Shown: positions 4,378 through 34,250 of the stretch, piece after piece
How positions within the stretch are numbered: the stretch's first letter is position 1
Layout: each line of letters starts with the position of its first letter
Assembly: GCA_003551845.1 (NCBI GenBank)
Contig: PUNQ01000064.1
Span: 10,649 to 74,648, forward strand
Direction: 5' to 3'
DNA length: 64,000 nt
Source: Candidatus Nealsonbacteria bacterium
GTDB taxonomy: Bacteria > Patescibacteriota > Minisyncoccia > Minisyncoccales > PWPS01
The notes under the pieces: model-generated
Seen by the model: the letters and a program-made list of their open reading frames with translations, nothing else
Told to the model about the DNA's origin: nothing
Database searches by the model: none
Program-made: the position numbers and the translations under genes

Positions 4378-4379
4378 TT

Positions 4380-13004: not shown

Positions 13005-13043
13005 GAAAGCTTAAGCTTAAGGTTTTTTTTGGGGAGGTTAAGG

Positions 13044-13084: not shown

Positions 13085-13104
13085 AAAAATAAGAAATTCT
13101 TTTT

Positions 13105-14160
13105 ATGAAAGAAAAATCAATACTTTTTACTTTACTCTTTTCTATTTTTGTCTTTTCTTTGCCCCTTTTTGCCGGCGCTCAGACGGGGATTGAGGTCAGC
13201 CCTTACAGGATAGAAGAGACCGTCGAGCCCGGTGACACGGTGGTAAGAACGATCAGAGTCAGAAACACCACCGACAGAGAGAGAACCTTTTATGCCGACC
13301 TGATGGATTTTGTCGTCATGGGAGAGGGCGGAAACGCCCGCCTGATGAGGGCCGGCAGTCATGAAAGAGCCTCTCTTACCGACTGGATAACGATTAGAAG
13401 AACCGGCACCGATTTTGATCCGGGAGAACGAAAGGAGGTCCAGGTCACCTTCAACGTGCCCGAGGATATAGGTCCGGGCGGATATTACGGGGCGATAGTC
13501 TTCGGCCCCAGTCCGCCGGACGCCAATGATCAGGCCACTTTTGTCGGCCTTACCCACCAGGTGGGGGTTTTGGTCCTTTTTAACGTTATGGGTGATGCCG
13601 ACGTCGAGGCCAGGGTAAGAGAGTTCAGCACCAGAAACCAGGTTTACGACACTCCGCTTCAAGTCGACTTTTTAACCCGGGTGGAAAATATAGGTAATTT
13701 ACATATAAAACCGACCGGATCGATACAAATTGAAAATATGCGCGGCGACAAAGTCGCCTCCGTCCCTTTAAATCCCGACGGGGACAACGTCTTACCCCGG
13801 TCCATAAGACGGATTGAAAACTTTTGGCAGGACGATTTCGGCTTCGGCAGATACAAGGCCTCCTTGATTATGAACTTCGGCGAGCCGACCGAGCGGGGAG
13901 GAACCGGAGTCCGGACCGTTTCCGCCGAAACAAACTTTTGGGTCTTGCCCCGGGCGCTAATCGGGCAAGTGGCCGTCGGTATTTTACTCATAATTTTGAT
14001 ACTCTACGTCATATTCAGAAATTACAAAAGAAAAGCGATCGAAGAAGCGACCGGTAAAGCCGCCGAAGCTAAAAGCTCGTCCGGCTTCGGTGTGATTGTC
14101 GCCGTCTTTTTGTTATCGCTTTCGGGCGTCGGAATATACGTTTACTTTTTCTTACTTTGA
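13105..14160 (+). CDS. DUF916/DUF3324-like membrane-anchored surface protein, paralog 2
   Basis: Signal peptide. GIEVSPYRIEETVEPGDTVVRTIRVRNTT. DWITIRR..VQVTFNVPEDIGPGGYYGAIVFG. GRYKASL..NFWVLP. Two C-terminal TM segments. Confidence 0.6.
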   Translation: MKEKSILFTLLFSIFVFSLPLFAGAQTGIEVSPYRIEETVEPGDTVVRTIRVRNTTDRERTFYADLMDFVVMGEGGNARLMRAGSHERASLTDWITIRRTGTDFDPGERKEVQVTFNVPEDIGPGGYYGAIVFGPSPPDANDQATFVGLTHQVGVLVLFNVMGDADVEARVREFSTRNQVYDTPLQVDFLTRVENIGNLHIKPTGSIQIENMRGDKVASVPLNPDGDNVLPRSIRRIENFWQDDFGFGRYKASLIMNFGEPTERGGTGVRTVSAETNFWVLPRALIGQVAVGILLIILILYVIFRNYKRKAIEEATGKAAEAKSSSGFGVIVAVFLLSLSGVGIYVYFFLL

Positions 14161-14161
14161 T

Positions 14162-15079
14162 ATGAAAGTAAAAATAATAATTCTCCTCTTGGCGTTTTTT
14201 CTCTTGCCTGTCGGAGCATTTTCCGAGCCGGATCCGGAAGTCGGTGAACCCGAAGAAGTGGAAGAAACGGAAGAAGTGGAGGAGGGAGCGATTTCTGTTT
14301 ATCCGGCCGTAGTTGAAGAAGTTTTGGATAAAAGAACTTCCAATACCTTTACGGTCACCGTTAAAAATGAGACCGATTCGTCCATACGCTTTTACCCTTT
14401 GGTTTACGACATCTTTCCCGACGAGGGAAGAGTCGATGAGACCGATCGGGAACAGGCTTTGAGCTCTTGGATAGAAGTTGACCGGTCCAGAAGAAGCCTG
14501 GGCTCCGGGGAAGAGAAGGAGATCTCAATAACGATAAATGTCGACGGCAACGCTGAGGCCGGCCGTTACAGCGGTGTGGTTGCCTTTTCTTTGGGAAGCA
14601 CCCGCCCGGACGCCGCCGAAAATGCCGAAACTCTGGTTCAACCGGAAGTTTTGATCAATCTCGAGGTTTTGGATCGTATCGTGGAAAGGGCTCAGGTTTT
14701 GAGCTTCAATAACTCCAACCGGGTTCTGCCCCCCGCCTCGTTGGATTTAAAAGTGGAAAACATAGGAAACACGGAAGTTATTCCCACCGGAATAATAGCC
14801 ATCTACGATCAGCGGGGAAGAGAGATAGATACTTTGAATCTTAACGAAGACCGTAAAGCGATAGAAGACGGAGAAACGGAGATTTTTACCGGTAAGTGGG
14901 GTGAAGGATTCGGCCGCTACAAGGCCGTTCTGATGGCCGAATACGGACGGGAAACGGAAAGAGAACTTCTGGACGTGATCTTTTTCTGGGTTATTCCCTG
15001 GCAGATTCTGGTCATCTTCGGCTTGGGAATAGTCGCCTTCATAGTTTTGCTTTGGCTGATGCGCAAGATGAAGATGTAA
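14162..15079 (+). CDS. DUF916/DUF3324-like membrane-anchored surface protein, paralog 3
   Basis: Start at ATG 14162 (MKVKIIILLLAFF..), 1 nt after the previous stop. ISVYPAVVEEVL..TVTVKNETD. SWIEVDR..ISITINVDGNAEAGRYSGVVAF. GRYKAVLMAEYG..FFWVIPW. C-terminal TM. Confidence 0.6.
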   Translation: MKVKIIILLLAFFLLPVGAFSEPDPEVGEPEEVEETEEVEEGAISVYPAVVEEVLDKRTSNTFTVTVKNETDSSIRFYPLVYDIFPDEGRVDETDREQALSSWIEVDRSRRSLGSGEEKEISITINVDGNAEAGRYSGVVAFSLGSTRPDAAENAETLVQPEVLINLEVLDRIVERAQVLSFNNSNRVLPPASLDLKVENIGNTEVIPTGIIAIYDQRGREIDTLNLNEDRKAIEDGETEIFTGKWGEGFGRYKAVLMAEYGRETERELLDVIFFWVIPWQILVIFGLGIVAFIVLLWLMRKMKM

Positions 15080-15105
15080 TAGCATATTCTTTCGGTTTAT
15101 GATTT

Positions 15106-16056
15106 ATGAAAAAATTGGTATACATTTTTTTTCCGGTTATCTTTTTGACCCTTCCCTTCTTCGCCTTCGGGGAAGCTGATTTGAGTTTGACCATAAGCCC
15201 TCTCATAAACAAGATAGAGGTGGAGCCGGGTGGAAGCCGGTCCGGTATTCTGCAGGTTTTCAATATGGGATCCCGGGAAGTGGAAGCGACCGCTTCCGTT
15301 CTTGACTTTGAGGGCGGCTATCAGGGCCACGTCAACTTTTTTTCAAGGGAAGAGATGGAAGAAAGAAGGGAAGAAATCTCTTTGGGTAGCTGGATGAGTG
15401 TGGACGAAGATCCTTTTTTGATTCCTCCCGGAGAAGGAAGGACGGTTCATTTTAGGATTGACGTCCCCGAAGACGCCGAACCGGGAGGTAAATACGCCTC
15501 CGTTTTGGTTACCACCGGGTCACCGGAAAGAGATTCCGAAAGCACGGGAATAGATTTGGCCGCCGGGGTCGGTTCTCTTTTTTTGGTCAACGTGGAAGGT
15601 GATGTGATTGAAAAAGCCGTTTTAAGAGATTTTTTTACCGAGGATCTCTTTTACAGAGGAGATGAAATAAGCTTTCGGTTGGGAGTTGAAAATCCGGGCA
15701 CCGTTCATATCCAACCCCGGGGAGAGATAAGGATTTACGACTACGGAGGACGGCGGGCGGGAGCCATAGATGTCAACCGGATAACCGATTTCGGGAACGT
15801 TTTACCGGGCACGGAGAGAAGTTGGGATTTTACTTGGAATAAAAAAAACGATATAATGGAAGCGGGAAGGTATAAGGCGGTTCTTTTCTTGGAATACGGA
15901 CGGGATAGAAGTGAAATTTACAAAGAGATAAATTTTTGGGTTTTGCCGGTTACTCGCCGGGGAGCGGTGATGGTCTTGATTTTGAGCGGCCTCTTTTTTG
16001 CCTTGGTCGGATACCGCCTGGTTGAAATTTACGGCAAAGAAGCTTTTAAAAAGTGA
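15106..16056 (+). CDS. DUF916/DUF3324-like membrane-anchored surface protein, paralog 4
   Basis: Signal peptide. LTISPLINKIEVEPGG..LQVFNMG. SWMSVDE..VHFRIDVPEDAEPGGKYASVLV. GRYKAVLFLEYG..NFWVLP. C-terminal TM. Confidence 0.6.
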   Translation: MKKLVYIFFPVIFLTLPFFAFGEADLSLTISPLINKIEVEPGGSRSGILQVFNMGSREVEATASVLDFEGGYQGHVNFFSREEMEERREEISLGSWMSVDEDPFLIPPGEGRTVHFRIDVPEDAEPGGKYASVLVTTGSPERDSESTGIDLAAGVGSLFLVNVEGDVIEKAVLRDFFTEDLFYRGDEISFRLGVENPGTVHIQPRGEIRIYDYGGRRAGAIDVNRITDFGNVLPGTERSWDFTWNKKNDIMEAGRYKAVLFLEYGRDRSEIYKEINFWVLPVTRRGAVMVLILSGLFFALVGYRLVEIYGKEAFKK

Positions 16057-16442
16057 TTATGAATATACTCAGAGTAGCAGTCAAACTGGCGATAGCGACC
16101 GGGATTCTGGTCGTGGTCGGCCTTTTTATCTTTTCTTGGCGATTTTATAATGTAAACCCCGTTGACTTGGGGCAATATTTGGGGGCCAGGGTCGGCTCCG
16201 TGGGAACTCAGTTGGAAGTGGCCGAAAACCCTTATAACAGCTTGGCCAGACAGCTCAGAGAAAGAGAAGAAGAGCTTGACGAACGGGAAAAGAAGCTGTT
16301 GGAAACTTTGGAAAAGAGGGATGCCGAAAACAGGTGGATTTCCAACCTGATATTGGGCTCGATAACTCTCCTTTTCATTCTGCTTCTTTTTAACTTTTAT
16401 CTGGATTACAAAATGCGCAAAAATGAGAGTTCGGGTCCGTAA
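16053..16442 (+). CDS. Small membrane protein (two TM helices flanking a coiled coil)
   Basis: TM ILVVVGLFIFSW and TM LILGSITLLFILLLFNFYL. RQLREREEELDEREKKLLETLEKRD between them. The start overlaps the previous stop. Confidence 0.45.
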   Translation: MIMNILRVAVKLAIATGILVVVGLFIFSWRFYNVNPVDLGQYLGARVGSVGTQLEVAENPYNSLARQLREREEELDEREKKLLETLEKRDAENRWISNLILGSITLLFILLLFNFYLDYKMRKNESSGP

Positions 16443-16463
16443 CTCTTGTTTTCTAAAAATAAA

Positions 16464-18488
16464 ATGAGGCATTCAAGTAAAAAATTTATTTCCCTTTTTC
16501 TCATCTCTATACTTTGCGGACTCTTTGCGGTTTTATTCGTCTTCGGCAACTATCAAGGCAGACTGACAAGTGTTTCCGATAAGATTTCCACTTCTCAGCC
16601 CGATGTGGGTGCTCGGCACAAAGTAAGCTTTACCATTACTACGGAAATCCCGCCTTCCGGGAAGATAATCGTCGACTTTATCGATAAAGAGGGCGCCGAG
16701 TTTTATATTCCTTCCGAAATGAGTTATGAAGACGTTCAGCTTTGGGTGGGAGAAGAAGAATTCAATTTGGGTGAAGAAGCCGGTCCGGAGACGACCGGCG
16801 CCGTTTTTTCCGTTGAAGAAAAAGTTTTAACACTTACTTTGGCCGATGAGCTTACCCTGGAGCCCGGAGACGAGCTGGTTATCGACGTCGGCAGCGATGA
16901 AAATCAAATTATAAACCCTCCTCAAGTCGACTCTTACAGGATAGAGATAGAAACTTTGACTCAGGAAGATGAGTTGCTCGATTACGGTGTGGCCATGATC
17001 GCCGTGGTGGAGCCGGTCGATGTGGGAGCGGAAATGATAGTCTTGGAGCCGATCGTAGTTACCGAACCGGCTGCCGTTTTGAGCGTTGACACCGCTATTT
17101 TGTATGGTGAGCTGGTCAATATGGGAATGGAAGATTCAGTTGACATATTTTTTCAATATCGCCTCACTGAAGAAGGTGAAGAAGAAGGTGAGGGCGAAGA
17201 GGGAGAAGAAGGTGAAGGTGAAGAAGGTGAGGGCGAGGAAGGTGAAGAAGAAGGAGAAGGTGAAGAAGAAGGAACCGAAGGAGCGATGCAGCCCATGGAA
17301 GAAGAAAACGATTGGATAGAGACTTCCAGGTTCGGAACCACCAGAGTGGTCAGGTTCAGTGAAATTTTAAGCGGACTCGAAAGGGGCGCCACTTATGAGT
17401 TCAGGGCCTGTGTGGAGTGGTATGACGAAGAAGAAGAAGAGTTGATGATGAACTGTGGCGAAATTTTGGATTTCAGAATGCTCGACGAAGATCCGGGAGA
17501 AGGTGACGGAGACGGTGAAGGTGAAGGAGGTGAAGGTGACGGCGAAGGCGACGGCGAGGGCGAAGGAGAAGAGGACGGAGAGGGTGATGGGCCGGAAGAG
17601 GAAGACGGTGCCGGAGAAGGACCGGAGGACGAAGAAGGAGTGGGTGACGGCGGAACCGGTGGAGGAACCGGTGGCGGAACCGGCGGTGATGTCGGCCCCG
17701 ATACCGGTGGTGGAGACGCCGGTGGAGACAGAGGACCGGAGCCCGGCGGTGAGCCGGCCAATCCCCCTCCTCCGGAGATTCAGGACCCTCCTCCTTATCT
17801 GTCTATCGGAGGATGGGCTTATCCGGGAGGAGAGGTCAGCCTTTTTAAAGATGGTGAATTGATGGAGACGACTCAAACCGATGCCGACGGAACCTTTTTG
17901 ATCGAGGAAAACGAGCCGATGGAAAACGAACCGACCAACTTTTTGCTCGAGGCTCAAGATTCGGAAGAAAGATCTTCCATAGAGACCACTTTCAATTTGA
18001 CTCCCAGGCCCGATGTCGGTTATCGAATCTCCAATTATCTCTTATCTCCCACCTTGGAACTAAGCAGTAGTTCCGTAGCGATGGGTCAAGATCTTTCCAT
18101 CTTCGGTAAATCGGTTCCGGGAGGAGTCGTTGAAGTCCGTTTTTTTGAAGATTTGGAAGAAGTGGCTCTGATGACCGCCGAAGTTGACGATCAGGGTGAT
18201 TGGGAGCTCGTTCCCGATCCGGAAGAATTGGGAGAGGGACGCTTTGAAATAATAGCCAGAGTGGAAGCTTACGGAGAGGAGTCCGCTTTCGGTGCTCCGC
18301 GAATGCTTTCTGTGGGAGAAGACGGATGTGTCGCCGCGGATATAAACAACGACGGGTCGGTCGGTCTTTTTGACTTCAGTATTATGATGTCCGTCTGGAA
18401 TACCGACGATCCTCGGGCCGATTTGAATAATGACGGAGTAGTTGATTTGATGGATTTCAGTATACTTTTAAGTTGTTGGACCGATTAA
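16464..18488 (+). CDS. Large acidic surface protein with C-terminal dockerin-like module
   Basis: Signal/TM (FISLFLISILCGLFAVLFVF). Two Glu/Gly/Asp low-complexity tracts. The last 53 aa, CVAADINNDGSVGLFDFSIMMSVWNTDDPRADLNNDGVVDLMDFSILLSCW, are two D.N.DG.....D EF-hand-like dockerin repeats (nt 18327-18485). ATG 16464 preferred to TTG 16446. Confidence 0.6.
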   Translation: MRHSSKKFISLFLISILCGLFAVLFVFGNYQGRLTSVSDKISTSQPDVGARHKVSFTITTEIPPSGKIIVDFIDKEGAEFYIPSEMSYEDVQLWVGEEEFNLGEEAGPETTGAVFSVEEKVLTLTLADELTLEPGDELVIDVGSDENQIINPPQVDSYRIEIETLTQEDELLDYGVAMIAVVEPVDVGAEMIVLEPIVVTEPAAVLSVDTAILYGELVNMGMEDSVDIFFQYRLTEEGEEEGEGEEGEEGEGEEGEGEEGEEEGEGEEEGTEGAMQPMEEENDWIETSRFGTTRVVRFSEILSGLERGATYEFRACVEWYDEEEEELMMNCGEILDFRMLDEDPGEGDGDGEGEGGEGDGEGDGEGEGEEDGEGDGPEEEDGAGEGPEDEEGVGDGGTGGGTGGGTGGDVGPDTGGGDAGGDRGPEPGGEPANPPPPEIQDPPPYLSIGGWAYPGGEVSLFKDGELMETTQTDADGTFLIEENEPMENEPTNFLLEAQDSEERSSIETTFNLTPRPDVGYRISNYLLSPTLELSSSSVAMGQDLSIFGKSVPGGVVEVRFFEDLEEVALMTAEVDDQGDWELVPDPEELGEGRFEIIARVEAYGEESAFGAPRMLSVGEDGCVAADINNDGSVGLFDFSIMMSVWNTDDPRADLNNDGVVDLMDFSILLSCWTD

Positions 18489-18512
18489 ATATAATATAAA
18501 AAAATATAAAAA

Positions 18513-19463
18513 GTGACCGTTTTGAATAAAAAAATAAATTTACACCTGATCTTTCTCTTGTTTTTTCTTTTATTTTTTCCTTTGGTTATGGAGGCGGGAG
18601 TTTTGTATTTTGAACCCGCCGAAGAGGAGTATCGGATAGGTGAAAAATTCATTTTGGAAATCAGGGTGGATACCGCCGGCGAGTGTATCAATGCGGTGGA
18701 AGTTTCTTTCAATTATCCGACCGATAAATTGACTGCCGTGGAATTTGTCGAGTCCCGGTCTATTTTGACTCTTTGGCCCAAGCCCGCGGAGATTGATGAA
18801 GATGACGGAAGAGTTACTTTTTCCGGTGGTCTGCCGGGAGGATTTTGCCCGGAAGATGATGAGTCCGCTCTTTTGGGAGAGTTGATTATGGAAGTTGATG
18901 AGATAAACCGGGAAAGCGAAGAAAGAATAAGATTTTGGAGAACCTCCAAGATACTTCTAAATGACGGCTACGCCACTCCGATGGATTACAGTCGCCGCAG
19001 TGCCTATTTAACTCTTATTCCGGAAGAGGTCGAGGACCCGGTTGATCCTATGCAGGAAAGAATAGAAGAAGACACCCGGCCTCCCAAAATATTCGACCTG
19101 ATATTGAGGAGAACACCCTTTCTTTTCAATGGAAAGTACTTTATAATCTTTTCCGCCGAGGACAAGGAGAGCGGAATAGATTACTTTGAGATTTCCGAGC
19201 AGAGAAGAGTCGGATTCGTGGGAGCGGAAGCAAAGCGGTGGACAAGATGGGAAAGAGCGGAAAGCCCTTACGTTCTCGAGGATCAGGATTTGAGAAGCAT
19301 AATCAGGGTCAGGGCGGTTGACAAGGCCGGCAATGAGACGATAAAGAAGATTAATCCTCCCGTAAACAGATGGGACATCCTTCCCTGGATGGCCGCATTC
19401 ATACTTATCGGAGCCGCCGCCTGGCGAGTAAAAGAAGTTAAGAAATTCAACGCACAACAATAA
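18513..19463 (+). CDS. Cohesin-like domain surface protein with Ig-like module and C-terminal TM
   Basis: Signal. VLYFEPAEEEYRIGEKFILEIRVDTAGECINAVEVSFNYPTDKLTAVEF..DGRVTFSGGLPGG..LLGELIMEV is cohesin-like. DTRPP..ESGIDYFEI..VRAVDKAGNE module as in 1522..3246. TM ILPWMAAFILIGAAAW. GTG start. Confidence 0.55.
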   Translation: MTVLNKKINLHLIFLLFFLLFFPLVMEAGVLYFEPAEEEYRIGEKFILEIRVDTAGECINAVEVSFNYPTDKLTAVEFVESRSILTLWPKPAEIDEDDGRVTFSGGLPGGFCPEDDESALLGELIMEVDEINRESEERIRFWRTSKILLNDGYATPMDYSRRSAYLTLIPEEVEDPVDPMQERIEEDTRPPKIFDLILRRTPFLFNGKYFIIFSAEDKESGIDYFEISEQRRVGFVGAEAKRWTRWERAESPYVLEDQDLRSIIRVRAVDKAGNETIKKINPPVNRWDILPWMAAFILIGAAAWRVKEVKKFNAQQ

Positions 19464-20325: not shown

Positions 20326-21765
20326 ATGGCAACAACGGAATTAAAAAATAAATTTACGCGAGTAAATAAATGGCTTTGGGAATTGCCGGAAAAGAATTTT
20401 CCCTTTATGCGCGTTCCGGCTCGACTTTATGCTTCCGAAAAGCTCTTCAAAGAGACGGAAGAGAGAGCTTTAAAACAGCTGGTAAACATAGCTTCTTTAC
20501 CCGGAATAGTCAGACACGCACTGGCGATGCCAGATATTCATTCCGGCTACGGCCCTCCGATAGGTGGAGTGGGAGCGGTCAGAGCTAAGGACGGTGTCAT
20601 ATCTCCCGGTTTTGTCGGATTCGATGAAAATTGCGGAGTGAGACTGCTTACCACTCAATTGAAATTTAAAGAAGTGGAGGGTCATATTGAAAGCGTGGCC
20701 GAAGAGATGCATAAGGCGATTCCTTCCGGTGTGGGAAAAGGAAGATCCAAGAGCTTTTCAAGAGCGGAAGTCAATCGTATTTTGAATGAAGGACCTCGTT
20801 TTTTGGTTGAGCAAGGATTCGGAAAAAAAAGAGATATAGAAAGATGTGAATCGGAAGGAAAACTGCCCGCCGACGCGTCCCGAGTGTCGGAAAAAGCCAA
20901 AAAAAGAGGAGCCGATCAGGTCGGAACCTTGGGAAGCGGAAATCATTTTTTGGAGATTCAAAGAGTAAAAAATATTTTTGATCGGGAAGCGGCCGAAATC
21001 TTCGGTTTAAGTGAAGACGGGGTGGTTATTATGATTCACACCGGCTCAAGGGGGTTGGGACATCAAAACTGCAAGGATTTTCTGAATAAGGCTAAAAAGG
21101 CGGTTAGGAAGAACAATATAAATCTTCCCGATGCCCAGCTGAATTGCTTTCCTTTCAAATCGGAAGAAGGACAGGATTTCTTTTTGGCGCTGGGAGGGGC
21201 TTGCAATTATTCTTTTGCCAACAGGCAGATGATAACCGATACGGTTCGCCGAATCTGGAAGCGGTATTTTTCCGACGAACCGGAGTTAATTTATGACGTA
21301 GCCCACAATACGGCCAAGCTGGAGACTCATGAAATAGACGGAAAAGAGATCGATTTGGTGGTTCACAGGAAAGGATCCACTCGTGCTTTTCCCGAAAACC
21401 ATATGGAAATCCCCGAAGCTTATCGCTCCGTCGGCCAGCCGGTGATTATGCCCGGCAGCATGGGAGAATCTTCATATATTTTACGTGGAGTCCCCGATGG
21501 GAAAACGTCTTTTTATTCCACGGGGCACGGAGCGGGAAGAGCTATGTCCAGAACCGGAGCCAGAAAAAATGTTGACGGTAGAGAGCTGCTTCAAAGACTG
21601 CGAAAAAAGGGAATCGTAGTCAAATGCAGTTCGGAAAAAGGGGTTGCGGAAGAAGCTCCCGAGGCGTACAAGGATATTTCCGAAGTGGTGGAAGTGGTTG
21701 ACGGTGCCGGACTTTGTAAAAAGGTAGCGGAAGTCGAACCGTTGGCGGTAATAAAAGGAGAATAA
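20326..21765 (+). CDS. rtcB: RNA 3'-phosphate ligase RtcB
   Basis: MPDIHSGYGPPIGGV, GFDENCGVRL, GSGNHFLEIQ, HTGSRGLGHQ, AHNTA..HRKGSTRA and PGSMG motifs. Confidence 0.9.
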   Translation: MATTELKNKFTRVNKWLWELPEKNFPFMRVPARLYASEKLFKETEERALKQLVNIASLPGIVRHALAMPDIHSGYGPPIGGVGAVRAKDGVISPGFVGFDENCGVRLLTTQLKFKEVEGHIESVAEEMHKAIPSGVGKGRSKSFSRAEVNRILNEGPRFLVEQGFGKKRDIERCESEGKLPADASRVSEKAKKRGADQVGTLGSGNHFLEIQRVKNIFDREAAEIFGLSEDGVVIMIHTGSRGLGHQNCKDFLNKAKKAVRKNNINLPDAQLNCFPFKSEEGQDFFLALGGACNYSFANRQMITDTVRRIWKRYFSDEPELIYDVAHNTAKLETHEIDGKEIDLVVHRKGSTRAFPENHMEIPEAYRSVGQPVIMPGSMGESSYILRGVPDGKTSFYSTGHGAGRAMSRTGARKNVDGRELLQRLRKKGIVVKCSSEKGVAEEAPEAYKDISEVVEVVDGAGLCKKVAEVEPLAVIKGE

Positions 21766-21766
21766 T

Positions 21767-21925
21767 ATGACCAAAAAGAGATTGCCGAAATCGGTAAGAA
21801 AACATATAAGAAGAAAAAAGGCGGAGATCAGAAATCGGTACTCCGATGAAGAAAGGCAAAAAGAAGAGATAGAAAAGATCTATAAAAAATTTAAAAAATA
21901 TTATGACGATAAAACAGATATATGA
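21767..21925 (+). CDS. Possible small basic protein (52 aa), unsupported
   Basis: The ATG lies 1 nt after the rtcB stop. Sequence MTKKRLPKSVRKHIRRKKAEIRNRYSDEERQKEEIEKIYKKFKKYYDDKTDI. Overlaps the start of 21903 by 23 nt. Too short to appear in the ORF track. Confidence 0.25.
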   Translation: MTKKRLPKSVRKHIRRKKAEIRNRYSDEERQKEEIEKIYKKFKKYYDDKTDI

Positions 21926-22844
21926 ATCGGCGATAAAAGAAGGAAGAAAAGCTGATTTCAGAACAAAAAAAGAGATAGAAAGAAAGCTCTCCCGAGCCGA
22001 GGAAGAGTATAAAAATTTATCGGGAAAAAAGAAGAATCTTTTTGACAAGGAGAAACTGGAGAATCCTTACAGCGACACCAGGATTTTATACGGGGATCCG
22101 AAAAAGAAAGTGAAAAAAGTGATGGTCGGGATAGATATAGACGGTGAAGAATTGCTTTTGGCCGACAAGTTGGGAGATATAGACTTGGTTATCTCTCATC
22201 ATCCGCGGGGAAAAGCTTTAGCCGGTCTCGATGACGTTATGGATTTGCAGATAGATATGCTTCATCATTACGGTGTTCCGATAAATATAGCCGAAAAACT
22301 TTTAAAAAAGAGGATAAAAGAAGTTTTTAGAGAGCTTGCTCCGGGTAACCATCAGAGAGCGGTTGATTTTGCGCGTCTCTTGGACATTCCTTTGATGTCG
22401 ATTCACACTCCTTGTGATAATTTGGTTGCCGAATTCGTTGAGAAAAAGCTGGAAAAAGACAATCCCAGAATATTAAAAGACGTTTTAAAGTCATTAAGAG
22501 AGATACCGGAATACGAAGAAGCGGAAAAACTGGGTATGGGACCGAAGATATTCGTCGGGAACGAACGGGACAGAACCGGAAAGATAGTGATGACCGAGAT
22601 TACCGGCGGCACGGAAGGCTCTCCCGACATATACAAAAATTTGGCTCATGCCGGTGCGGGGACGATAATCGGTATGCATATCTCGGAAAAACATCGCGGA
22701 GAAGCTCAGAAAGCCCATGTCAACGTCGTTATTGCCGGACATATATCATCGGACTCCATAGGAGTTAATCTCTTCTTGGACAAGCTCAAGGGGGTTGAGA
22801 TAGTGCCTTGTTCGGGACTTATAAGACATAAAAGAAACGGATGA
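21903..22844 (+). CDS. NIF3 (DUF34)-like dinuclear-metal-centre family protein
   Basis: KKVMVGIDIDGEELLLADKLGDIDLVISHHP and later SIHTPCDN / VIAGHISSDSIG histidine clusters typical of the NIF3 family. Confidence 0.45.
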   Translation: MTIKQIYESAIKEGRKADFRTKKEIERKLSRAEEEYKNLSGKKKNLFDKEKLENPYSDTRILYGDPKKKVKKVMVGIDIDGEELLLADKLGDIDLVISHHPRGKALAGLDDVMDLQIDMLHHYGVPINIAEKLLKKRIKEVFRELAPGNHQRAVDFARLLDIPLMSIHTPCDNLVAEFVEKKLEKDNPRILKDVLKSLREIPEYEEAEKLGMGPKIFVGNERDRTGKIVMTEITGGTEGSPDIYKNLAHAGAGTIIGMHISEKHRGEAQKAHVNVVIAGHISSDSIGVNLFLDKLKGVEIVPCSGLIRHKRNG

Positions 22845-23701
22845 AACAGATCAACTGGAAAACTTTCGTCATAGAACTTATCTTTTTTATGGTGACGCTC
22901 ATTTTGGGTGTGATGATCTCTCCTTATGTATTTGAGATGATGCAATCGGAAGCGATTTATGCCGCGGAAGGAAATCAGTCGCAAGAAGCCGTTTCCCCGC
23001 TGATTTTTGTAGCTTACTTTATTTTTGCCACTCTTTTGGTTTATCTCGTCTCCAAGAGCGAAAAATTGAAAAAGCAGCGTCTTGTCTTTTTTAAATTCGC
23101 CTTCTTTCTTTCGGTGGCTGTCGGTGGCTTTATAACCTTGTCCGTTTTTCTTCCGGAGTTGATATCTTTTTCGGTGATGGTGATTTTGCTTTTTATCTGG
23201 GAGAAAAAGCCGATCGTCTTTATTCATAATCTACTCATCGTTTTTGCGATAGCCGGAATCGGCGCTTTGGTGGGAACGATATTCGATCCGCCCACGGTAG
23301 TCGTGTTTCTAATTCTTTTTTCCGTTTATGACGTGATTGCGGTTTATAAGACCAAGCATATGGTTAAAATGGCCACCGAGATGATAAAAACCAAGGCGGT
23401 AATGGGTCTTATAGCCCCACTTGATTTTAAGAGTCTTTTTGACGATTTATCCAAAAAAAAGAAAAAGGAGTTCATGGTTTTGGGAGGAGGAGACTTGGCT
23501 TTTCCTCTCTTTTTAGCGACATCGGTTTCTCATAATTACGGCTTTGTTGAAGCTATGGTTGTGGTTTCTTTTGCCTGTTTGGGACTTTTCGGATCCTTTT
23601 TCTTTTTCATTATTCAAAAAATAAAAAAGCCGATCCCGGCATTGCCCCCGATAGCCCTCCTCTCAATAATAGGGTACCTGTTGGCCCGCTTCGTCCTCTG
23701 A
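22841..23701 (+). CDS. Presenilin/signal-peptide-peptidase-like GxGD intramembrane aspartyl protease (A22 family)
   Basis: Polytopic membrane protein with the three signature motifs in order: FSVYDVIAVY (YD), FMVLGGGDLAFPL (GxGD) and KPIPALPPIALL (PAL). Confidence 0.7.
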   Translation: MKQINWKTFVIELIFFMVTLILGVMISPYVFEMMQSEAIYAAEGNQSQEAVSPLIFVAYFIFATLLVYLVSKSEKLKKQRLVFFKFAFFLSVAVGGFITLSVFLPELISFSVMVILLFIWEKKPIVFIHNLLIVFAIAGIGALVGTIFDPPTVVVFLILFSVYDVIAVYKTKHMVKMATEMIKTKAVMGLIAPLDFKSLFDDLSKKKKKEFMVLGGGDLAFPLFLATSVSHNYGFVEAMVVVSFACLGLFGSFFFFIIQKIKKPIPALPPIALLSIIGYLLARFVL

Positions 23702-23738
23702 CCCCTTTTTTACACCTACGAGGTGTAAGAATCGGGGG
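23702..23738. repeat. Palindromic intergenic element, copy C (overlaps the 3' end of the Elp3-like gene and begins 1 nt after the stop of the A22 protease gene)
   Basis: ccccttttttacacctacgaggtgtaagaatcggggg. Confidence 0.8.
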
Positions 23739-25275
23739 TGCGATTCTTTACCATGTAGCTGTCCTCAAGTTTATATCCGTTTTTTCTCCAATAACCCCTG
23801 GCACCCACGCCGGAAATAACCGTAATCTTTTTTGTCGGTGCCAGTTCTTCGGCCCTTTTTACCAATCTTTTACCCAGTCCTTTGTGTTGTGGTGAAGTTT
23901 TCAAAACTTCTCCGTTTTTAATCATCGTTTGCTGGCCGTAAGTGTGAATTTCTCTTATTATGGTTGAGTTTTTAAGCACTTCCGGATACGGATCGGCCGG
24001 AATTCTCATTCTCAGAAGACTGAACAATTTGGTTCTTTTTTTGTTTTCAAAGGTTAAAACCATCTCTTTTCCTCCCGAAGCCTCGTATTCTTCTTTAAAA
24101 AATTTCAACTCTTCTTCCGGGTCGTAGTTGTCTTTTACTTCTCTGCAACGGATGCACTTACATCTCCACCCCTCCTTCTCGGCTTTCTCGTGTAATTTTT
24201 CTCTTAAATTGGAAGTTCCCCCGCCGGCAACCACGTATTGGGACGGAATATCCCTTATCACTCTTTGAATTCTGACCCAGTAAGGAATTTCTTTTTTAAT
24301 TTTTGAAAGCAAGTCGATCAACTCATCGGTTGTGTAGGGCTCATATTCCCCTTTTTTGTAAAGCTCATAAAGAGGAGCTTCTTTGAGCACCATGCAGGGA
24401 TAAATTTTTAAAAAATCGGGCTTAAACCTATCGTCTTTGAAGATCAGCTCCATCATTTCAATATCCTTTTTAAAAGTGGAGCCGGGAAGGTCGGGCATTA
24501 TTTGATAACAAACCTTGAATCCGGCATCTTTCAGCAATTTTGTCGCCTTTACGGTTTCTTTCACTTCGTGACCTCTTTTATTTTTTTTCAAAACGTCGTT
24601 GAAGACACTTTGAACTCCGATTTCCACCATCGTCACCCCCAATTTTCTTAAGTGAGAAATTTCTTTTTTATCTATATAATCTGGCCTGGTTTCTATTGAG
24701 AGAGTAACCATTTTCCGTTTTGCCTTTTCATTGTCTTCTTGTGCCTTTTTTAATGTTTCTGCCTTTTTACCGTTTAAGCTCTCAAAGCAAGATTTAATGA
24801 ACTCTTCCCTGTAATCTTTGTCGTAGTAAGACCATGTTTCTCCAACTATTCTCAACTCAACTTTATCCGTAGGGTGGCCGGTTCTGGTTAGAGAATTAAT
24901 CCTGTTTTTCACTTGCTTTTCGGGGTCGAAGTCGTTTAATTTAGCTCGCATTACCGCCGGTTCGTCATCCAGGTAACTTTTGGGCGCTCCTTCCTGAATC
25001 GGGCAATAAAGACAATCACCCGGGCATTTATGAGGTTTGGTAAGAACCGAAACGTTGACCACCCCGGAAAGAGACCTTACCGGCCTGAGTCTTAGCACGG
25101 CTTCCAATCTTTTATCTTTTACACCCATATTTTTGTAGGCTTCAATAAGGTCGGTGTTGGGTGGGCAATTAACACCGTATTTTTTACATACGTTTCTTTT
25201 GGTTTGATCGACCACTTCTCGAGACACCTCTTCTTTTTCAAGTAGTCTTTTTACAATTTCTTTTGCTAAATTCAT
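23716..25275 (-). CDS. elp3: Elp3-type radical SAM + GNAT enzyme (tRNA U34 cm5 modification)
   Basis: VLTKPHKCPGDCLYCP radical-SAM cluster. SYLDDEPAVMRA. KVELRIVGETWSYY. C-terminal GNAT IHTYGQ..QHKGLGKRLVKRAEELA. Confidence 0.8.
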   Translation of the reverse strand: MNLAKEIVKRLLEKEEVSREVVDQTKRNVCKKYGVNCPPNTDLIEAYKNMGVKDKRLEAVLRLRPVRSLSGVVNVSVLTKPHKCPGDCLYCPIQEGAPKSYLDDEPAVMRAKLNDFDPEKQVKNRINSLTRTGHPTDKVELRIVGETWSYYDKDYREEFIKSCFESLNGKKAETLKKAQEDNEKAKRKMVTLSIETRPDYIDKKEISHLRKLGVTMVEIGVQSVFNDVLKKNKRGHEVKETVKATKLLKDAGFKVCYQIMPDLPGSTFKKDIEMMELIFKDDRFKPDFLKIYPCMVLKEAPLYELYKKGEYEPYTTDELIDLLSKIKKEIPYWVRIQRVIRDIPSQYVVAGGGTSNLREKLHEKAEKEGWRCKCIRCREVKDNYDPEEELKFFKEEYEASGGKEMVLTFENKKRTKLFSLLRMRIPADPYPEVLKNSTIIREIHTYGQQTMIKNGEVLKTSPQHKGLGKRLVKRAEELAPTKKITVISGVGARGYWRKNGYKLEDSYMVKNRTPDSYTS

Positions 25276-25402
25276 AGATTTTTATTTGGTGGTTTATTAT
25301 AGCTCATCAATCTTTATATTCAAAACAGTCAAACCGCTCTTTTTCAATTTATCTGTTTTTAGGTGTGTGGACGGGATTAAGTTGAGTTAAATGCAGTAAT
25401 AA

Positions 25403-25564
25403 TTTTCACAAGGAGGGGATTTTGAAGCGTTATGGTCTACATCTATGGATGCCGGAGATTGGCCGTATACGATGCAACTTTGTAGCTATTGGTGTCCCGG
25501 AGTGAAGAGGTGGACCGGATCGGGATATGATATGGGAATTTCAGTTCGCTGCATTAAAGAATAA
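25403..25564 (+). pseudogene. Orphan C-terminal remnant of a DUF1566/FISUMP-type domain gene
   Basis: In-frame translation FSQGGDFEALWSTSMDAGDWPYTMQLCSYWCPGVKRWTGSGYDMGISVRCIKE*. No upstream start or N-terminal part (stop at 25400). ..WSTS..(G)ISVRCIK is the family's C-terminal signature. Compare YWSSTE..YRVRCVRR at the end of 36100..37200. Confidence 0.55.
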
Positions 25565-25590
25565 AAATTTTAAAGTTGCCACCCCTTTAA

Positions 25591-25615
25591 TTGTGATAGG
25601 TTGAACCTATCACAA
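25591..25615. promoter_or_regulatory. Perfect 11-3-11 palindrome (operator-like site or hairpin)
   Basis: ttgtgataggt-tga-acctatcacaa, 45 nt upstream of the -35 of the Trm9-like gene promoter. Confidence 0.35.
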
Positions 25616-25659
25616 AGTGTGGTGCAAAAGGTGAAGTTTTTGTGAGGGAGAAGAGATCC

Positions 25660-25687
25660 TTGAAGCTTTTCTTTGAAGGTTTATAAT
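25660..25687 (+). promoter_or_regulatory. Sigma70-type promoter for 25710..26390
   Basis: TTGAAG (25660-65), 16-nt spacer, TATAAT (25682-87). Confidence 0.55.
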
Positions 25688-25709
25688 TGAAGCGATAATC
25701 TTCGATGAT

Positions 25710-26390
25710 ATGAAAGAGAAAAAAATATTGAAAAAAAATAAAGATGATTACAACCTGATTGCCGATCATTTTTCAAATACCAGAAAGTATCCCTGGAGAG
25801 GTTTTAAATTTATTTTTGAAGAAATTTCGGAGGGTGAAAGGGTTTTGGACCTGGGTTGTGGAAACGGAAGATTTTATCAGTTTTTAAAAGAGAAAGATGT
25901 AGACTACGTTGGTGTGGACAAGGCCGAAAAGTTGATTGAAAAGGCTCGAAAAGAATATCCGAAAGCGAAATTTAAAACTGCCGATGCCTTAAAACTCCCT
26001 TTTAAAGACAATTCTTTTGATTTTGTAATTTCAATTGCCGTTTTACATCACATGCCTTCAGAAAAAACGAGACTGCAATTTTTAAGGGAGGCGAAAAGAG
26101 TTTTGAAAAAGGGCGGAAAGCTTAGAATTTCTGTTTGGGATCTTTTGAAAACCGACAAGAGAATTTATTTTTCCGATGTCGGGAAAAAGATAGCCGGTCG
26201 GATCGGACTCAGGGACGCATTTTTACCCTGGAAAAATGATAAGGGAAAGATAATTACAGAGAGGTATTATCACGCCTTCAAAAAAGAAGAACTCGAAAAG
26301 CTGGCAAAAGAGGCGAAGCTTAAAAACGTTGAAATTTTTGGAAAAGGAAAAAAACATAAATCGACACTTTTTCTTTTCGCTCAAAAATGA
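25710..26390 (+). CDS. Class I SAM-dependent methyltransferase, Trm9-like
   Basis: IADHFSNTRKYPWRGF resembles the Trm9/ALKBH8 MTase N-terminal motif (hFs.TR...W). VLDLGCGNGRF motif I. FDFVISIAVLHHM. Confidence 0.6.
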   Translation: MKEKKILKKNKDDYNLIADHFSNTRKYPWRGFKFIFEEISEGERVLDLGCGNGRFYQFLKEKDVDYVGVDKAEKLIEKARKEYPKAKFKTADALKLPFKDNSFDFVISIAVLHHMPSEKTRLQFLREAKRVLKKGGKLRISVWDLLKTDKRIYFSDVGKKIAGRIGLRDAFLPWKNDKGKIITERYYHAFKKEELEKLAKEAKLKNVEIFGKGKKHKSTLFLFAQK

Positions 26391-26743
26391 AAATAAGCTA
26401 CATAAAACCGGGAAAAATAAAGATAGCCGATAAAAAATACGAAGAAGACGTAGTCGTCGATTCTTCGGGAATTGTCTTTTCTTGGAAAAAAAAGAAGAAG
26501 ATACTCGGCAAAGACGACTTGGAGATTTTTTTAAAAGAAGAACCGGAAGCTTTGATAGTAGCCAAAAATGAAAATTTAACCGAGATATCGGAGGAAGGAA
26601 AGCGGCTTATCAAAAATCGGGACGTATTACTCTTTTTTGACAAGACCGCTCAAGCGGTTAAAGCTTTTAATCTTTCAGCACGAAAAAAAAGGAGAGTAAT
26701 GGCAGTTTTTGCCTTAAAAAGTGATAATGAAGAGAAAAAGTGA
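26387..26743 (+). CDS. Mth938-like (DUF498) domain protein
   Basis: 118 aa. G.I.I....Y..DVVV...G.V..W pattern (KIKIADKKYEEDVVVDSSGIVFSW). PEALIVAKNE. TAQAVKAFNL..KKRRVMAVFAL. Confidence 0.5.
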   Translation: MKISYIKPGKIKIADKKYEEDVVVDSSGIVFSWKKKKKILGKDDLEIFLKEEPEALIVAKNENLTEISEEGKRLIKNRDVLLFFDKTAQAVKAFNLSARKKRRVMAVFALKSDNEEKK

Positions 26744-26950: not shown

Positions 26951-27418
26951 ATGACAAAAAAACATTACTTAACTGAAGAAGGTCTTGAAAAAGTCAAAAA
27001 TGAATTGAAAGAGCTGATTCAGGAAAAAAAGAAGAAGACCAAAGACGGTGTTCCCGAGGTTTTGCATTCGGAAGATCTGAATCCGGAGTACTTGGATTTC
27101 AGGCAAGACCTCCATCTTTTGGAAAGGAGAATAATGAAGTTGGACGAAGTAGTTAAAAATGCGGAAATAATCAAATCTCCTGAAAACAAGAGAAAGGTTG
27201 AATTGGGGGCCAGAGTAATCATTGAAGCTGACGGCCAGGAAGACCAATTCACCATAGTCGGATCTTTGGAGGCCGATCCTGCGGAAGGAAAAATATCGAA
27301 TGAATCATTGGTAGGAAGAAAGTTGATGGGAAAAAAGGTTGGAGACAAAGTGACCGCAGCCTCCAAGGTGGAGACGGTTTATGAAATTAAAAAGATTGAA
27401 TATCAAGACGAAGTATGA
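26951..27418 (+). CDS. greA: Transcription elongation factor GreA
   Basis: 155 aa. N-terminal coiled coil (LTEEGLEKVKNELKEL...). C-terminal ..ISNESLVGRKLMGKKVGDKV.. FKBP-like domain. Confidence 0.85.
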   Translation: MTKKHYLTEEGLEKVKNELKELIQEKKKKTKDGVPEVLHSEDLNPEYLDFRQDLHLLERRIMKLDEVVKNAEIIKSPENKRKVELGARVIIEADGQEDQFTIVGSLEADPAEGKISNESLVGRKLMGKKVGDKVTAASKVETVYEIKKIEYQDEV

Positions 27419-28047
27419 AAGAAATATATGAGTTTATAACTTCAGTCGGAAAACTAAAGTCCGAAGGCAGAAGAGGCTGGAAAATACATGACATAGAAAA
27501 TCCGGAAACGACGGCCGCTCATACTTTTCAGTTGGCACTCATAGTTTGGACAGTGGGTAAAAGAAAAGAGGACTTTGACTTGAACAGGGCTATAAAAATG
27601 GCTTTGATTCACGATATTTGTGAGGTTCATTCTCCCGATTTGACTTCTTATGATGCCGTGGGAATCGATGAGAATGAGAAATTTACAAGAGACGATATTG
27701 AAAATTTAAAACCGAAGAAGGGTCGACCAACCTTGAAGCAAAGAAAAAAAATGAAAAAAGTAAAGAGAGAGCTGGAAAGCGAAGCCATGGATAAGATACT
27801 CGCCGATTTGCCCGAAGAAATAAGTGAGGACTTTTTTGAGCTTTGGCGGGAATATGAAAAAAAGGTCACTCCCGAGGCGAAATTCGTAAAACAGGCCGAT
27901 GATGTAACCAACTTACTTCAAGGAATGGAGTATTGGAAGGACGGACACAAGGGCATAGAATACAGGCTTTGGGTGAGGAGAGGAAAAGAGAAGATAGACG
28001 ACCCCGATTTAATTGAATTTTTGGTAATGATTGAAGAATCATTGTAA
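27415..28047 (+). CDS. HD-domain phosphohydrolase (YfbR/HDDC2-like 5'-nucleotidase)
   Basis: ENPETTAAHTFQLALI and ALIHDICEV (H...HD). Carries a Lys-rich insertion. Confidence 0.65.
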   Translation: MKEIYEFITSVGKLKSEGRRGWKIHDIENPETTAAHTFQLALIVWTVGKRKEDFDLNRAIKMALIHDICEVHSPDLTSYDAVGIDENEKFTRDDIENLKPKKGRPTLKQRKKMKKVKRELESEAMDKILADLPEEISEDFFELWREYEKKVTPEAKFVKQADDVTNLLQGMEYWKDGHKGIEYRLWVRRGKEKIDDPDLIEFLVMIEESL

Positions 28048-28054
28048 GATATTC

Positions 28055-28645
28055 ATGAAGAAGAGAAGACTGATAGTGAACTTTATCGCGTCAGATTTTT
28101 TTCTACAATCGGGATGGGGCTTCATAGGCCCCGTTTTCGCTATTTTTTTGACCGAAAGGATTGCCGGAGCAACAATCGGAACCGTGGGTTTTGCCGCCGG
28201 AATATATTGGATAACTAAATCCAGCGTTCAACCCTTCGTTGCCAGAATGATGGATATGATAAAAGGAGAAGAGGATGACCTCAATTTCTTGGTTGCCGGC
28301 CTCGTCGCTCTCAGCTTTCTTTCTTTGGCTTATATTTTTGCGACCAATATTTGGCATATATTTCTCATAGAGTTTTTAAGAGGATTGGCTCAAGCTTGCG
28401 TTGTTCCCGCATGGTTCGGAATGTTCACTCATTACATCGATCCCAACTGGAGATCTTTCACCTGGGCGATGCACAGCACTTTTATCGGTTATGCTCTGGG
28501 ATTTGCAGCAATTTTCGGGGGAATGATAGCCGATACGGTTGGCTTTAATCTGGTATTCATGCTTGTTGCCGGATCGGCACTTGTTTCCGCTCTGATAGTG
28601 AAAAGAGTAAAAAGTAAACATTTGATTTTGGTTGATGAAAAATAA
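28055..28645 (+). CDS. Six-TM membrane protein resembling half of an MFS transporter
   Basis: About 196 aa and six hydrophobic segments. ATG 28055 preferred to TTG 28031. Confidence 0.4.
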   Translation: MKKRRLIVNFIASDFFLQSGWGFIGPVFAIFLTERIAGATIGTVGFAAGIYWITKSSVQPFVARMMDMIKGEEDDLNFLVAGLVALSFLSLAYIFATNIWHIFLIEFLRGLAQACVVPAWFGMFTHYIDPNWRSFTWAMHSTFIGYALGFAAIFGGMIADTVGFNLVFMLVAGSALVSALIVKRVKSKHLILVDEK

Positions 28646-30368
28646 AGAGATAGCTCAAAAGCTGAATAAAATAGCTCGACATCTGGAAATGGATGATGTC
28701 GATTTTAAGCCATTCGCTTACCGGAGAGCGTCTTCTTCCATATTGAATCTTGAAGAAGATATAGAAAAAATTTATGAAGAAAAAGGAAGAAAAGGCATAG
28801 AAGAAATTTCGGGAGTGGGTAAAAATATAGCTGATAAAATAGAAGAATTTTTGCTTACCGGAGAAATGGAACATTTAAAAACTTTGGAAGAAAAGCATCC
28901 CGTAGAACTGGATGAGCTGTTGAAAGTGGAGGGGCTGGGACCAAAAAGCATTAAAAAGCTTTACGAAAAGTTGAAGATAAAAAGTCTTGAGGATTTGGAA
29001 GAAAAAGCTAAAAAAGGAGAGATCGCTTCCCTGGACGGTTTTGGCGAAAAAACGGAAAAAAATATTTTGGAAGCGATAGAATTTTTAAAAAGAGATGAGG
29101 GAAAATGGTCTTTGGGAGAAGTTATGGAGGTGGCGAATCGAATATTTGAAAAACTGAAATCTTTAGAAGAAGTTAAGCGAATAAATTTTGCCGGCTCTTT
29201 GAGAAGGAGCAAAGAATTGGTGGGAGATGTGGATATTTTGATTTCTGCAGGAAAGACGGAGCGAGTAATGGAAACTTTTACCTCTTTTGAAAATGTTTTC
29301 AAAGTGCTCAGCAAAGGGGATACTCGTTCATCCGTTAAAGTGGATGCCGGTTTCGGGATTGATTTACGGGTCGTTAAAAAGAAAAGCTTCGGATCGGCAC
29401 TACAATACTTTACCGGTTCCAAGGAGCATAATATAAAGTTGAGAAAATTGGCAATCGGTAAGGGAATGAAACTCAATGAATACGGGCTATTCAAAAATGG
29501 AAAAAAAATTGCCGGCAAAGAGGAAGAAGAAATCTATTCTCATTTGGGTCTTTCTTTCATTCCTCCGGAATTAAGAGAAGACAGGGGGGAAATTGAAAAA
29601 GCGATTAAAGGGGAAGATTTTTCGGATTTATGTAGACCGGAAGACTTAAAGGGAGATTTGCATGTCCACACCGATTGGACCGGGGGTGCTAATACACTTG
29701 AAGAAATGATTGCTGAGGCGGAAAAGAAAGGATATGATTATTTGGGAATAGCGGACCATACCGAATTTTTGAGAATTGAAAACGGGTTGAGCAAGGAGGA
29801 GCTACGAAAGCAAAGGAAAGAAATAGAAAAAATGAATTCAAAATTAAGGAAAAAAGGATCAAAAATGAGAGTATTGCAAGGATGTGAAGCCAATATTCTA
29901 AAAGACGGATCTTTGGATATGGACGATGAGACGCTTGAGAAGCTGGATTATGTCATAGCCGGAATTCACTCTTCTTTCAAAATGAATGAAAAGGATATGA
30001 CCGACAGGCTCATTAAAGCGATTGAAAATCCGGTTGTCGACATAATATCACACCCGACCGGAAGGTTGATTAAAAAGAGAGAATCGTTAGACTTGAATAT
30101 GGGCAGGGTGTTTAGGGCTGCCGGTGACAGAGGGATAGCAATGGAAATAAATTCTTCTCCCGCCAGATTGGATCTTTCCGACAAACATATAAAGGCATGT
30201 GTCGAAAAAGGGATAAAGATGGTTATAAACAGTGATTCTCACCATAAAAGTCAGATGGACAATTTGAGTTTCGGAGTCGGGCAAGCCAGAAGAGGATGGG
30301 CTCGTAGAAGTGATATTATAAATACTAATAATCTTGAAGATCTTTTGTCTTTTTTTAAAGAAGAGTGA
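28632..30368 (+). CDS. polX: Family X DNA polymerase with C-terminal PHP domain (PolX)
   Basis: HhH motifs (ISGVGKNIADKI, VEGLGPKSIKKL). GSLRRSKELVGDVDILI catalytic aspartates. PHP LHVHTDWTGG...IADH. Confidence 0.85.
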   Translation: MMKNKEIAQKLNKIARHLEMDDVDFKPFAYRRASSSILNLEEDIEKIYEEKGRKGIEEISGVGKNIADKIEEFLLTGEMEHLKTLEEKHPVELDELLKVEGLGPKSIKKLYEKLKIKSLEDLEEKAKKGEIASLDGFGEKTEKNILEAIEFLKRDEGKWSLGEVMEVANRIFEKLKSLEEVKRINFAGSLRRSKELVGDVDILISAGKTERVMETFTSFENVFKVLSKGDTRSSVKVDAGFGIDLRVVKKKSFGSALQYFTGSKEHNIKLRKLAIGKGMKLNEYGLFKNGKKIAGKEEEEIYSHLGLSFIPPELREDRGEIEKAIKGEDFSDLCRPEDLKGDLHVHTDWTGGANTLEEMIAEAEKKGYDYLGIADHTEFLRIENGLSKEELRKQRKEIEKMNSKLRKKGSKMRVLQGCEANILKDGSLDMDDETLEKLDYVIAGIHSSFKMNEKDMTDRLIKAIENPVVDIISHPTGRLIKKRESLDLNMGRVFRAAGDRGIAMEINSSPARLDLSDKHIKACVEKGIKMVINSDSHHKSQMDNLSFGVGQARRGWARRSDIINTNNLEDLLSFFKEE

Positions 30369-33872: not shown

Positions 33873-33898
33873 ATTTTTTTAATTAATTTTGAATATTG

Positions 33899-34250
33899 TG
33901 GAGATGGGGAGGTGTGACCCCCCGTCCGAAAATTTCCTCAAAATGAGTCTACAAGTTTAGTCCGGTTATTTCTCGGCCGGAGATTATATCCGGACGAAGC
34001 TTCTCCGACCAAAGGTCGGTTGGTTCATGACTCGTTTGACCAAAACGAGCCGGATATCCCGAAATTATGGTACCTTTACCACCCATCGGGAGTCAGTGGT
34101 AAAAGCAGGCACTCAAGCTGCCGCTAAAGCGGGAGAGAATGCCAGATCTTCTTGTAAGTTGGCACTTACTTGAATTTGATCATTTTTACGAGTTAATCAG
34201 CTCGACTTGCGTCATTTTAAGGATGATTTTCGTCTAATCGGATCATCCCC
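33899..34250 (-). ncRNA. ssrA: tmRNA (SsrA)
   Basis: 5' GGGGATGATCCGATTAGACG. 3' GGGGG-GTCACAC-CTCCC-CATCTCC-A. Acceptor GGGGATG/CATCTCC with G3:U70. Tag frame 34163..34113: GCC AAC TTA CAA GAA GAT CTG GCA TTC TCT CCC GCT TTA GCG GCA GCT TGA = ANLQEDLAFSPALAAA*. Adjacent to smpB. Confidence 0.85.

Follow-up and report, generated by a model that had tools for sequence, protein, structure and literature searches.

The chemistry at C5 of the tRNA wobble uridine (U34) is regarded as a marker of the domains of life, MnmE/MnmG operating in Bacteria and Elp3 or the Elongator complex, together with Trm9, in Archaea and Eukarya. Both routes have the same target, the C5 atom of the wobble uridine in tRNAs reading NNA/NNG codons, but their chemistry is unrelated: the MnmE/MnmG route to 5-carboxymethylaminomethyluridine or 5-aminomethyluridine (cmnm5U/nm5U) employs a GTPase together with FAD and folate, whereas Elp3 is a radical S-adenosylmethionine (SAM) enzyme that uses acetyl-CoA. 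Here we describe an Elp3 gene and a divergently transcribed gene for a Trm9-like methyltransferase in a 64,000-nucleotide stretch of contig PUNQ01000064.1 (assembly GCA_003551845.1, positions 10,649 to 74,648), which is called the window throughout. Going by protein families and gene order, we put the probability that this pair is a two-gene tRNA wobble-uridine modification module of a bacterium of the Patescibacteria (Candidate Phyla Radiation, CPR) at roughly 0.75.

The closest described systems are archaeal and eukaryotic. Elp3 and Trm9 genes cluster in Sulfolobus (PMC6144793, PMC5372719), and in Haloferax volcanii the Trm9-Trm112 complex makes 5-methoxycarbonylmethyluridine (mcm5U) (PMC6144793). 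According to a 2017 review of Trm112, Trm9 is confined among the archaea to Sulfolobales and Halobacteriales, and no bacterial homologues of the methyltransferases that partner with Trm112 are detectable (PMC5372719). For Elp3 in bacteria, one account gives Dehalococcoides as the only holders (PMC7663514), whereas a later one speaks of "numerous bacteria" (PMC13315578). The Dehalococcoides enzyme, DmcElp3, has no N-terminal extension and is a weak tRNA binder (PMC6367351). Our literature search found no paper connecting Elp3 with CPR/Patescibacteria.

The gene at 23716-25275 (minus strand) encodes a 519-residue protein, predicted to make 5-carboxymethyluridine (cm5U) at position 34, and its membership of the Elp3 family is directly supported. 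The NCBIfam model TIGR01211 matches residues 7-511 with 562.4 bits (cutoff 350), corresponding to positions 2-521 of the 522 positions of the model. Pfam Radical_SAM scores 64.8 bits (cutoff 29.5), Radical_SAM_C is likewise above its cutoff, and ELP3_N (PF23613) matches residues 3-68 with 40.2 bits (cutoff 27), on which basis the basic, archaeal/eukaryotic-type N-terminal tRNA-binding extension is present. Among structures in the Protein Data Bank (PDB) the first match is MinElp3 from Methanocaldococcus infernus (6ia8; E = 1.9e-129, 436 bits), followed at a distance by the Dehalococcoides Elp3 (359 bits) and eukaryotic Elp3 proteins (313-331 bits). The radical-SAM [4Fe-4S] motif CPGDCLYC (25003-25026, minus strand; residues 84-91, with C84, C88 and C91) aligns with CPHGKCIFC of MinElp3, the prokaryote-type zinc-binding cysteines CKCIRC (24145-24162, minus strand; residues 372-377) with CRCIRC, and the acetyl-CoA-binding motif of the KAT domain, QHKGLGKRL (23863-23889, minus strand; residues 463-471), with QHMGYGRML. 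The stand-alone Pfam GNAT match is below threshold (18 bits, cutoff 23.6); the alignment to MinElp3 nevertheless continues through the KAT domain to residue 510. The original prediction, made from the nucleotide sequence and a list of its open reading frames (ORFs), had read this gene as a full-length Elp3 with the CPGDCLYC cluster and a C-terminal GNAT domain, and that it encodes full-length Elp3 is confirmed.

Among solved structures the window Elp3 is closest to MinElp3. Like that protein it is a single subunit unaccompanied by Elp1, 2, 4, 5 and 6, has an extended N-terminal tRNA-binding domain and carries prokaryote-type zinc cysteines with the same radical-SAM and KAT motifs; it differs in the spacing of the radical-SAM cysteines, which is CX4CX2C in MinElp3 and CX3CX2C here. 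With the Elp3 of Dehalococcoides mccartyi (5l7j), the characterised bacterial Elp3, it shares the condition of a bacterial stand-alone enzyme and the same two-domain architecture, but unlike DmcElp3 it possesses the N-terminal extension, and the archaeal enzyme is the one it matches with the higher score.

The second gene, at 25710-26390 (plus strand), encodes a class I SAM-dependent methyltransferase of 226 residues, predicted to carry out the methyl-esterification that converts cm5U34 to mcm5U34. In a phmmer search its top PDB match is Trm9 of Yarrowia lipolytica (5cm2_Z; E = 6.5e-17), with an alignment that covers residues 22-196 and runs well past the Rossmann core. A profile built from 27 members of the family again places 5cm2_Z first, with 92.8 bits against 77.8 for the next match, and so does a Foldseek search with the AlphaFold2 model of the protein (predicted local distance difference test score, pLDDT, 94.8). 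BLASTP gives 36% identity over 162 amino acids to Trm9 of Saccharomyces cerevisiae (ScTrm9); the ScTrm9 sequence used matches 5cm2_Z with 1.5e-70, and its residue numbers agree with those of PMC4678810. By sequence, family profile and fold, therefore, Trm9 is the closest solved relative, which supports the assignment of the protein as probably Trm9-type. Its probable orthology to Trm9 is argued from best-match status, residue conservation and context.

The decisive evidence from sequence lies in the active site, where the residues on which Trm9 catalysis depends are largely present. The N-terminal Trm9 signature YNLIADHFSNTRKYPW (25749-25796, plus strand), which the original prediction had singled out as Trm9-like, aligns with Y18-W33 of ScTrm9, Y14, H20 and R25 being equivalent to ScTrm9 Y18, H24 and R29; the corresponding stretch of Yarrowia Trm9 aligns as well. 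By alignment, H113 and H114 in AVLHHMPS (26037-26060, plus strand) are the catalytic histidine pair H115 and H116 of ScTrm9, and R185 and Y187 in RYYH (26262-26273, plus strand) are R241 and Y243, residues that touch either the carboxylate or the tRNA. Alanine substitution of R29, D72, H116, W145, W168, R241, Y243 or N271 abolishes or strongly lowers the activity of ScTrm9 (PMC4678810). Seven of these eight essential residues are identical in the window protein (R25, D47, H114, W143, W174, R185 and Y187, placed through the alignment with the Yarrowia enzyme). Within the 55 metagenomic homologues that are linked to an Elp3 gene, six of the positions are close to invariant: R29 is kept in 54, D72 and W145 in all 55, H116 in 52, W168 in 50 and R241 in 49. 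Because residues that are experimentally essential in Trm9 are conserved, we read the methyltransferase as Trm9-type.

Compared with eukaryotic Trm9 (5cm2, ScTrm9) as a whole, the window protein shares the YN-IA-HFS-TR--PW motif, motif I, the histidine pair, the tryptophans equivalent to W145 and W168, RYYH and a C-terminal tail of the form ...N-x-x-x-x-A-x-K. It differs in overall identity, which is about 27-36%, in having threonine at the position of N271 and in being without the insertion found in ScTrm9. The setting differs too, the eukaryotic Trm9-Trm112 and ALKBH8 enzymes acting downstream of a six-subunit Elongator.

The two genes also stay together. In the window they are divergent, as the original prediction had stated and the ORF listing confirms, and a Trm9-type methyltransferase is encoded beside Elp3 as it is in the Elp3/Trm9 cluster of Sulfolobus solfataricus. 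Scanning metagenomes with the alignment of the methyltransferase family yielded 80 loci, 65 of them informative in that over 400 bp of sequence precede the methyltransferase gene, and a contig scan of genomes with single-protein Elp3 patterns yielded seven loci. Elp3 lies directly upstream on the opposite strand in 52 of the 65 informative loci, which is far beyond what chance adjacency would give. The linkage follows the identity to the window methyltransferase, with 24/24 loci at 45% or more, 14/16 at 40-45%, 11/16 at 36-40% and 3/9 below 36%; at 40% or more the pair is linked in 38 of 40. Redundant sampling does not account for it, since clustering of the linked methyltransferases still leaves 55 groups at an identity of 90%, 47 at 70% and 19 at 50%. 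One locus (L005), with an Elp3 at 56% identity, has no other gene in common with the neighbourhood in the window, yet the pair is kept, 17 bp apart.

The most distant linked loci (L088; GC content 0.53-0.55) belong to Anaerolineales/Chloroflexi, so that the phylum Chloroflexota, which contains D. mccartyi, also holds an Elp3/Trm9-like pair. Two gene tables from Anaerolineales list a 535-537-residue Radical_SAM/Radical_SAM_C protein divergent from a 240-residue methyltransferase, beside glpX. At E <= 1e-15 a search with the methyltransferase from this clade retrieves 4857 relatives, among them several to which the Joint Genome Institute (JGI) gives the name TRM9. The pair occupies 8299-10705 in L088 and 4317-6723 in L090, L091 and L092, and one of these Anaerolineales/Chloroflexi pairs is on a 1.56-Mb contig. 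The Elp3/Trm9-like pair is thus common among Patescibacteria and extends to Anaerolineales; the statement in the original prediction that few bacteria, Dehalococcoides for one, are known to have Elp3 is too narrow. A divergent adjacency maintained in two phyla suggests that the methyltransferase is functionally coupled to Elp3.

We propose that Elp3 would use SAM and acetyl-CoA to add a carboxymethyl group at C5 of U34, generating cm5U, and that the Trm9-like enzyme would then methyl-esterify the carboxylate of cm5U in a SAM-dependent reaction to give mcm5U34, or, on a tRNA that is thiolated as well, 5-methoxycarbonylmethyl-2-thiouridine (mcm5s2U34). The divergent control region, which is short in most relatives, would couple the expression of the two genes. 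We infer both the nucleoside made and the tRNA substrates. An archaeal/eukaryotic-style (m)cm5U34 module is what the original prediction had seen in this pair, and it is borne out by the relatives of the two proteins, by the active-site residues and by the conserved divergent pairing.

Eukaryotic and archaeal Trm9 require Trm112. This is the first of several points that weigh against a complete mcm5U pathway in the window, for no Trm112-like zinc-knuckle ORF turned up when all six frames of the window and of 89 loci were scanned for the motif, albeit a weak test, and the locus differs in this from the archaeal Elp3/Trm9 system (H. volcanii HVO_1032-Trm112), its host being a bacterium with no Trm112 gene evident nearby. 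The second is at the uridine-reading position: N271 of ScTrm9, the proposed reader of O2 and N3 of U34, whose alanine substitution leaves about 4% of activity (PMC4678810), is T219 (26364-26366) in the window protein. The third is that the position of Y243 is variable, being Y in 23 of the 55 Elp3-linked homologues and F, I or V in the others. A review notes that biochemical and nucleoside evidence is wanting even for Dehalococcoides (PMC7663514). Finally, neither Pfam nor NCBIfam holds a Trm9-specific model with which the methyltransferase could be scored, and the Foldseek margin is small (3.2e-17 for 5cm2_Z, 9.2e-17 for a generic methyltransferase); because this gap is narrow, the fold alone does not discriminate among class I methyltransferases.

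The absence of a visible Trm112, the threonine at the N271 position and the variation of the family at that of Y243 could be explained if the methyltransferase acted with Elp3 on RNA without converting cm5U to mcm5U, its target being another atom, another Elp3 intermediate or a bacterial-specific xcm5U derivative. There is a precedent of a kind in H. volcanii, which in the absence of Trm9 turns cm5U into other, unidentified products (PMC6144793). We consider this alternative unlikely, although it is the strongest of those weighed here. As in Trm9, the protein keeps the residues which position the carboxylate (R25, H113/H114, R185) together with both tryptophans that stack (W143, W174), and the position of N271 is occupied by N in 50 of the 55 Elp3-linked family members, the threonine being common to the window protein and its closest two homologues, P0002 and P0003. 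Because N is so prevalent in the family, we take T219 to be a peculiarity of the lineage of the window; it lowers the certainty for the window protein and not for the family.

That the methyltransferase is a generic small-molecule or lipid enzyme of the UbiE/SmtA/UbiG type, which came to lie beside Elp3 by chance, is very improbable. Its Pfam matches are indeed generic (Methyltransf_11/25/31), homologues are publicly annotated as "class I SAM-dependent methyltransferase" or "UbiE", although some are named TRM9 by the JGI pipeline, and generic methyltransferases come near the Trm9 score in Foldseek. The NCBIfam models for such enzymes nonetheless score far below their cutoffs: UbiE/MenG (TIGR01934) 60.3 against 158, UbiG (TIGR01983) 39.3 against 103, BioC (TIGR02072) 47.4 against 185 and ArsM 54.9 against 263, and even the best NCBIfam match, DVU_1556, reaches only 83.3 against 155. 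Motifs that are specific to Trm9 and lie beyond the Rossmann core are conserved, and an adjacency to Elp3 that holds at 52 of 65 loci, in deeply diverged sequences from two phyla, largely refutes a chance neighbour. With 5cm2_Z as the best solved relative, the Trm9-type rather than the UbiE/SmtA-type reading of the original prediction stands. Least credible of all is that Elp3 is a protein (lysine) acetyltransferase or has some other non-tRNA role, with an unrelated or protein-modifying methyltransferase at its side: older annotation did make Elp3 a histone acetyltransferase, a label that PDB molecule names still carry, but acetyl-CoA hydrolysis by bacterial, archaeal and eukaryotic Elp3 happens only when it is triggered by tRNA (PMC6367351), the window Elp3 has the N-terminal tRNA-binding domain and the partner to which it is linked is Trm9-like.

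The module as we read it, an Elp3 and a Trm9-type enzyme acting in sequence on U34, is a bacterial member of a known pathway and its mechanism is not new; nor is it a new kind of system, because both the Elp3/Trm9 pathway and the gene cluster are known in archaea. A tightly linked cassette conserved in many Patescibacteria and found in Anaerolineales would imply a complete two-step mcm5U pathway in bacteria. More tentatively, and with more doubt than confidence, we suggest that large parts of the Patescibacteria and Anaerolineae decode with mcm5(s2)U34 instead of or alongside the cmnm5U of MnmE/MnmG, by means of a stand-alone Elp3 and a Trm112-free Trm9, and that the divergent cassette spread between phyla as a unit. 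If that is true, the methyltransferase would be the first bacterial Trm9 and its product the first bacterial mcm5U, contrary to the review statement that bacterial homologues of Trm112-partner methyltransferases are not detectable (PMC5372719). No MnmE, MnmG or MnmA gene lies within the 64-kb window; any replacement of MnmE/MnmG, like the independence from Trm112, we infer. For structural biology the family would be a source of small, soluble Trm9 enzymes that may not need Trm112, and it has a bearing on the archaeal-like features and the gene exchange of CPR bacteria.

The divergent intergenic spacer of the window (25276-25709) measures 434 bp, against an estimated median start-to-start distance of about 9 bp in the relatives. 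Sigma70-like hexamers, identified as consensus matches only, face both genes from within it (25323-25296, minus strand; 25660-25687, plus strand), and at 25593-25613 lies a hairpin with a perfect 9-bp stem, GTGATAGGT-TGA-ACCTATCAC. Conservation with the spacers of two close relatives (L003 and L004) is confined to about 50 bp adjoining Elp3, beside some 300 bp of extra sequence. An RNA element in the long spacer was considered and rejected, as an Rfam search of the 434 bp returned nothing at E <= 1 and only those 50 bp are conserved among relatives.

Downstream of the methyltransferase, a gene for a protein of 118 residues (26387-26743, plus strand) belongs to the DUF498/Mth938 family (Pfam PF04430, 59.4 bits, cutoff 33). 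Its start codon and the stop of the methyltransferase share 4 bp (ATGA), an overlap that had been noticed earlier together with the Mth938-like character of the gene; the two genes appear to be translationally coupled, in the lineage of the window and three close relatives only. As the DUF498 gene follows the methyltransferase exclusively in the window and these relatives (L003, L004 and L008), we rejected it as a substitute for Trm112 or a third component; it is a lineage-specific neighbour outside the module. Clustering of the ORFs in the 4 kb downstream at all loci revealed no generally conserved partner. Two proteins do recur in the Elp3-linked loci, one of about 87 residues in 16 of them and one of about 192 residues in 12, both encoded on the strand of the methyltransferase about 0.4-1 kb downstream of it (e.g. 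L015, 2906-3750); neither is found in the window.

On the other side, just past Elp3, the window carries a gene string (20326-23701) made up of RtcB (an RNA ligase), a 52-residue ORF, NIF3/DUF34 and a presenilin-like signal-peptide peptidase. Parts of this string, NIF3 especially, adjoin Elp3 again in 12 or more further loci from CPR bacteria (e.g. L020-L023, L025 and L043), and could hint at a wider RNA-processing neighbourhood.

The host is read as a CPR/Patescibacteria bacterium because of the transfer-messenger RNA (tmRNA), GreA, SmpB and RuvA and of the labels on the closest relatives, which are Nealsonbacteria, Patescibacteria group, Dojkabacteria and Pacebacteria. The tmRNA lies at 33896-34250 of the window, where genes for GreA and RuvA are present too, as is an F-type ATP synthase operon; identical proteins are found on contig PWHH01000085.1 of a metagenome-assembled genome (GCA_003554795.1), and this contig carries SmpB, IF3 and L20 as well. 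Three regions of the window (507-5537, 10284-19463 and 50331-53932) contain many long ORFs (265-680 residues) without a Pfam match at E <= 1e-5, as is typical of CPR genomes. Farther downstream of the methyltransferase, an HD-domain (YfbR-like) 5'-deoxynucleotidase gene (27415-28047) precedes that of PolX (28632-30368), a DNA polymerase of family X that ends in a PHP domain and is kept in close relatives.

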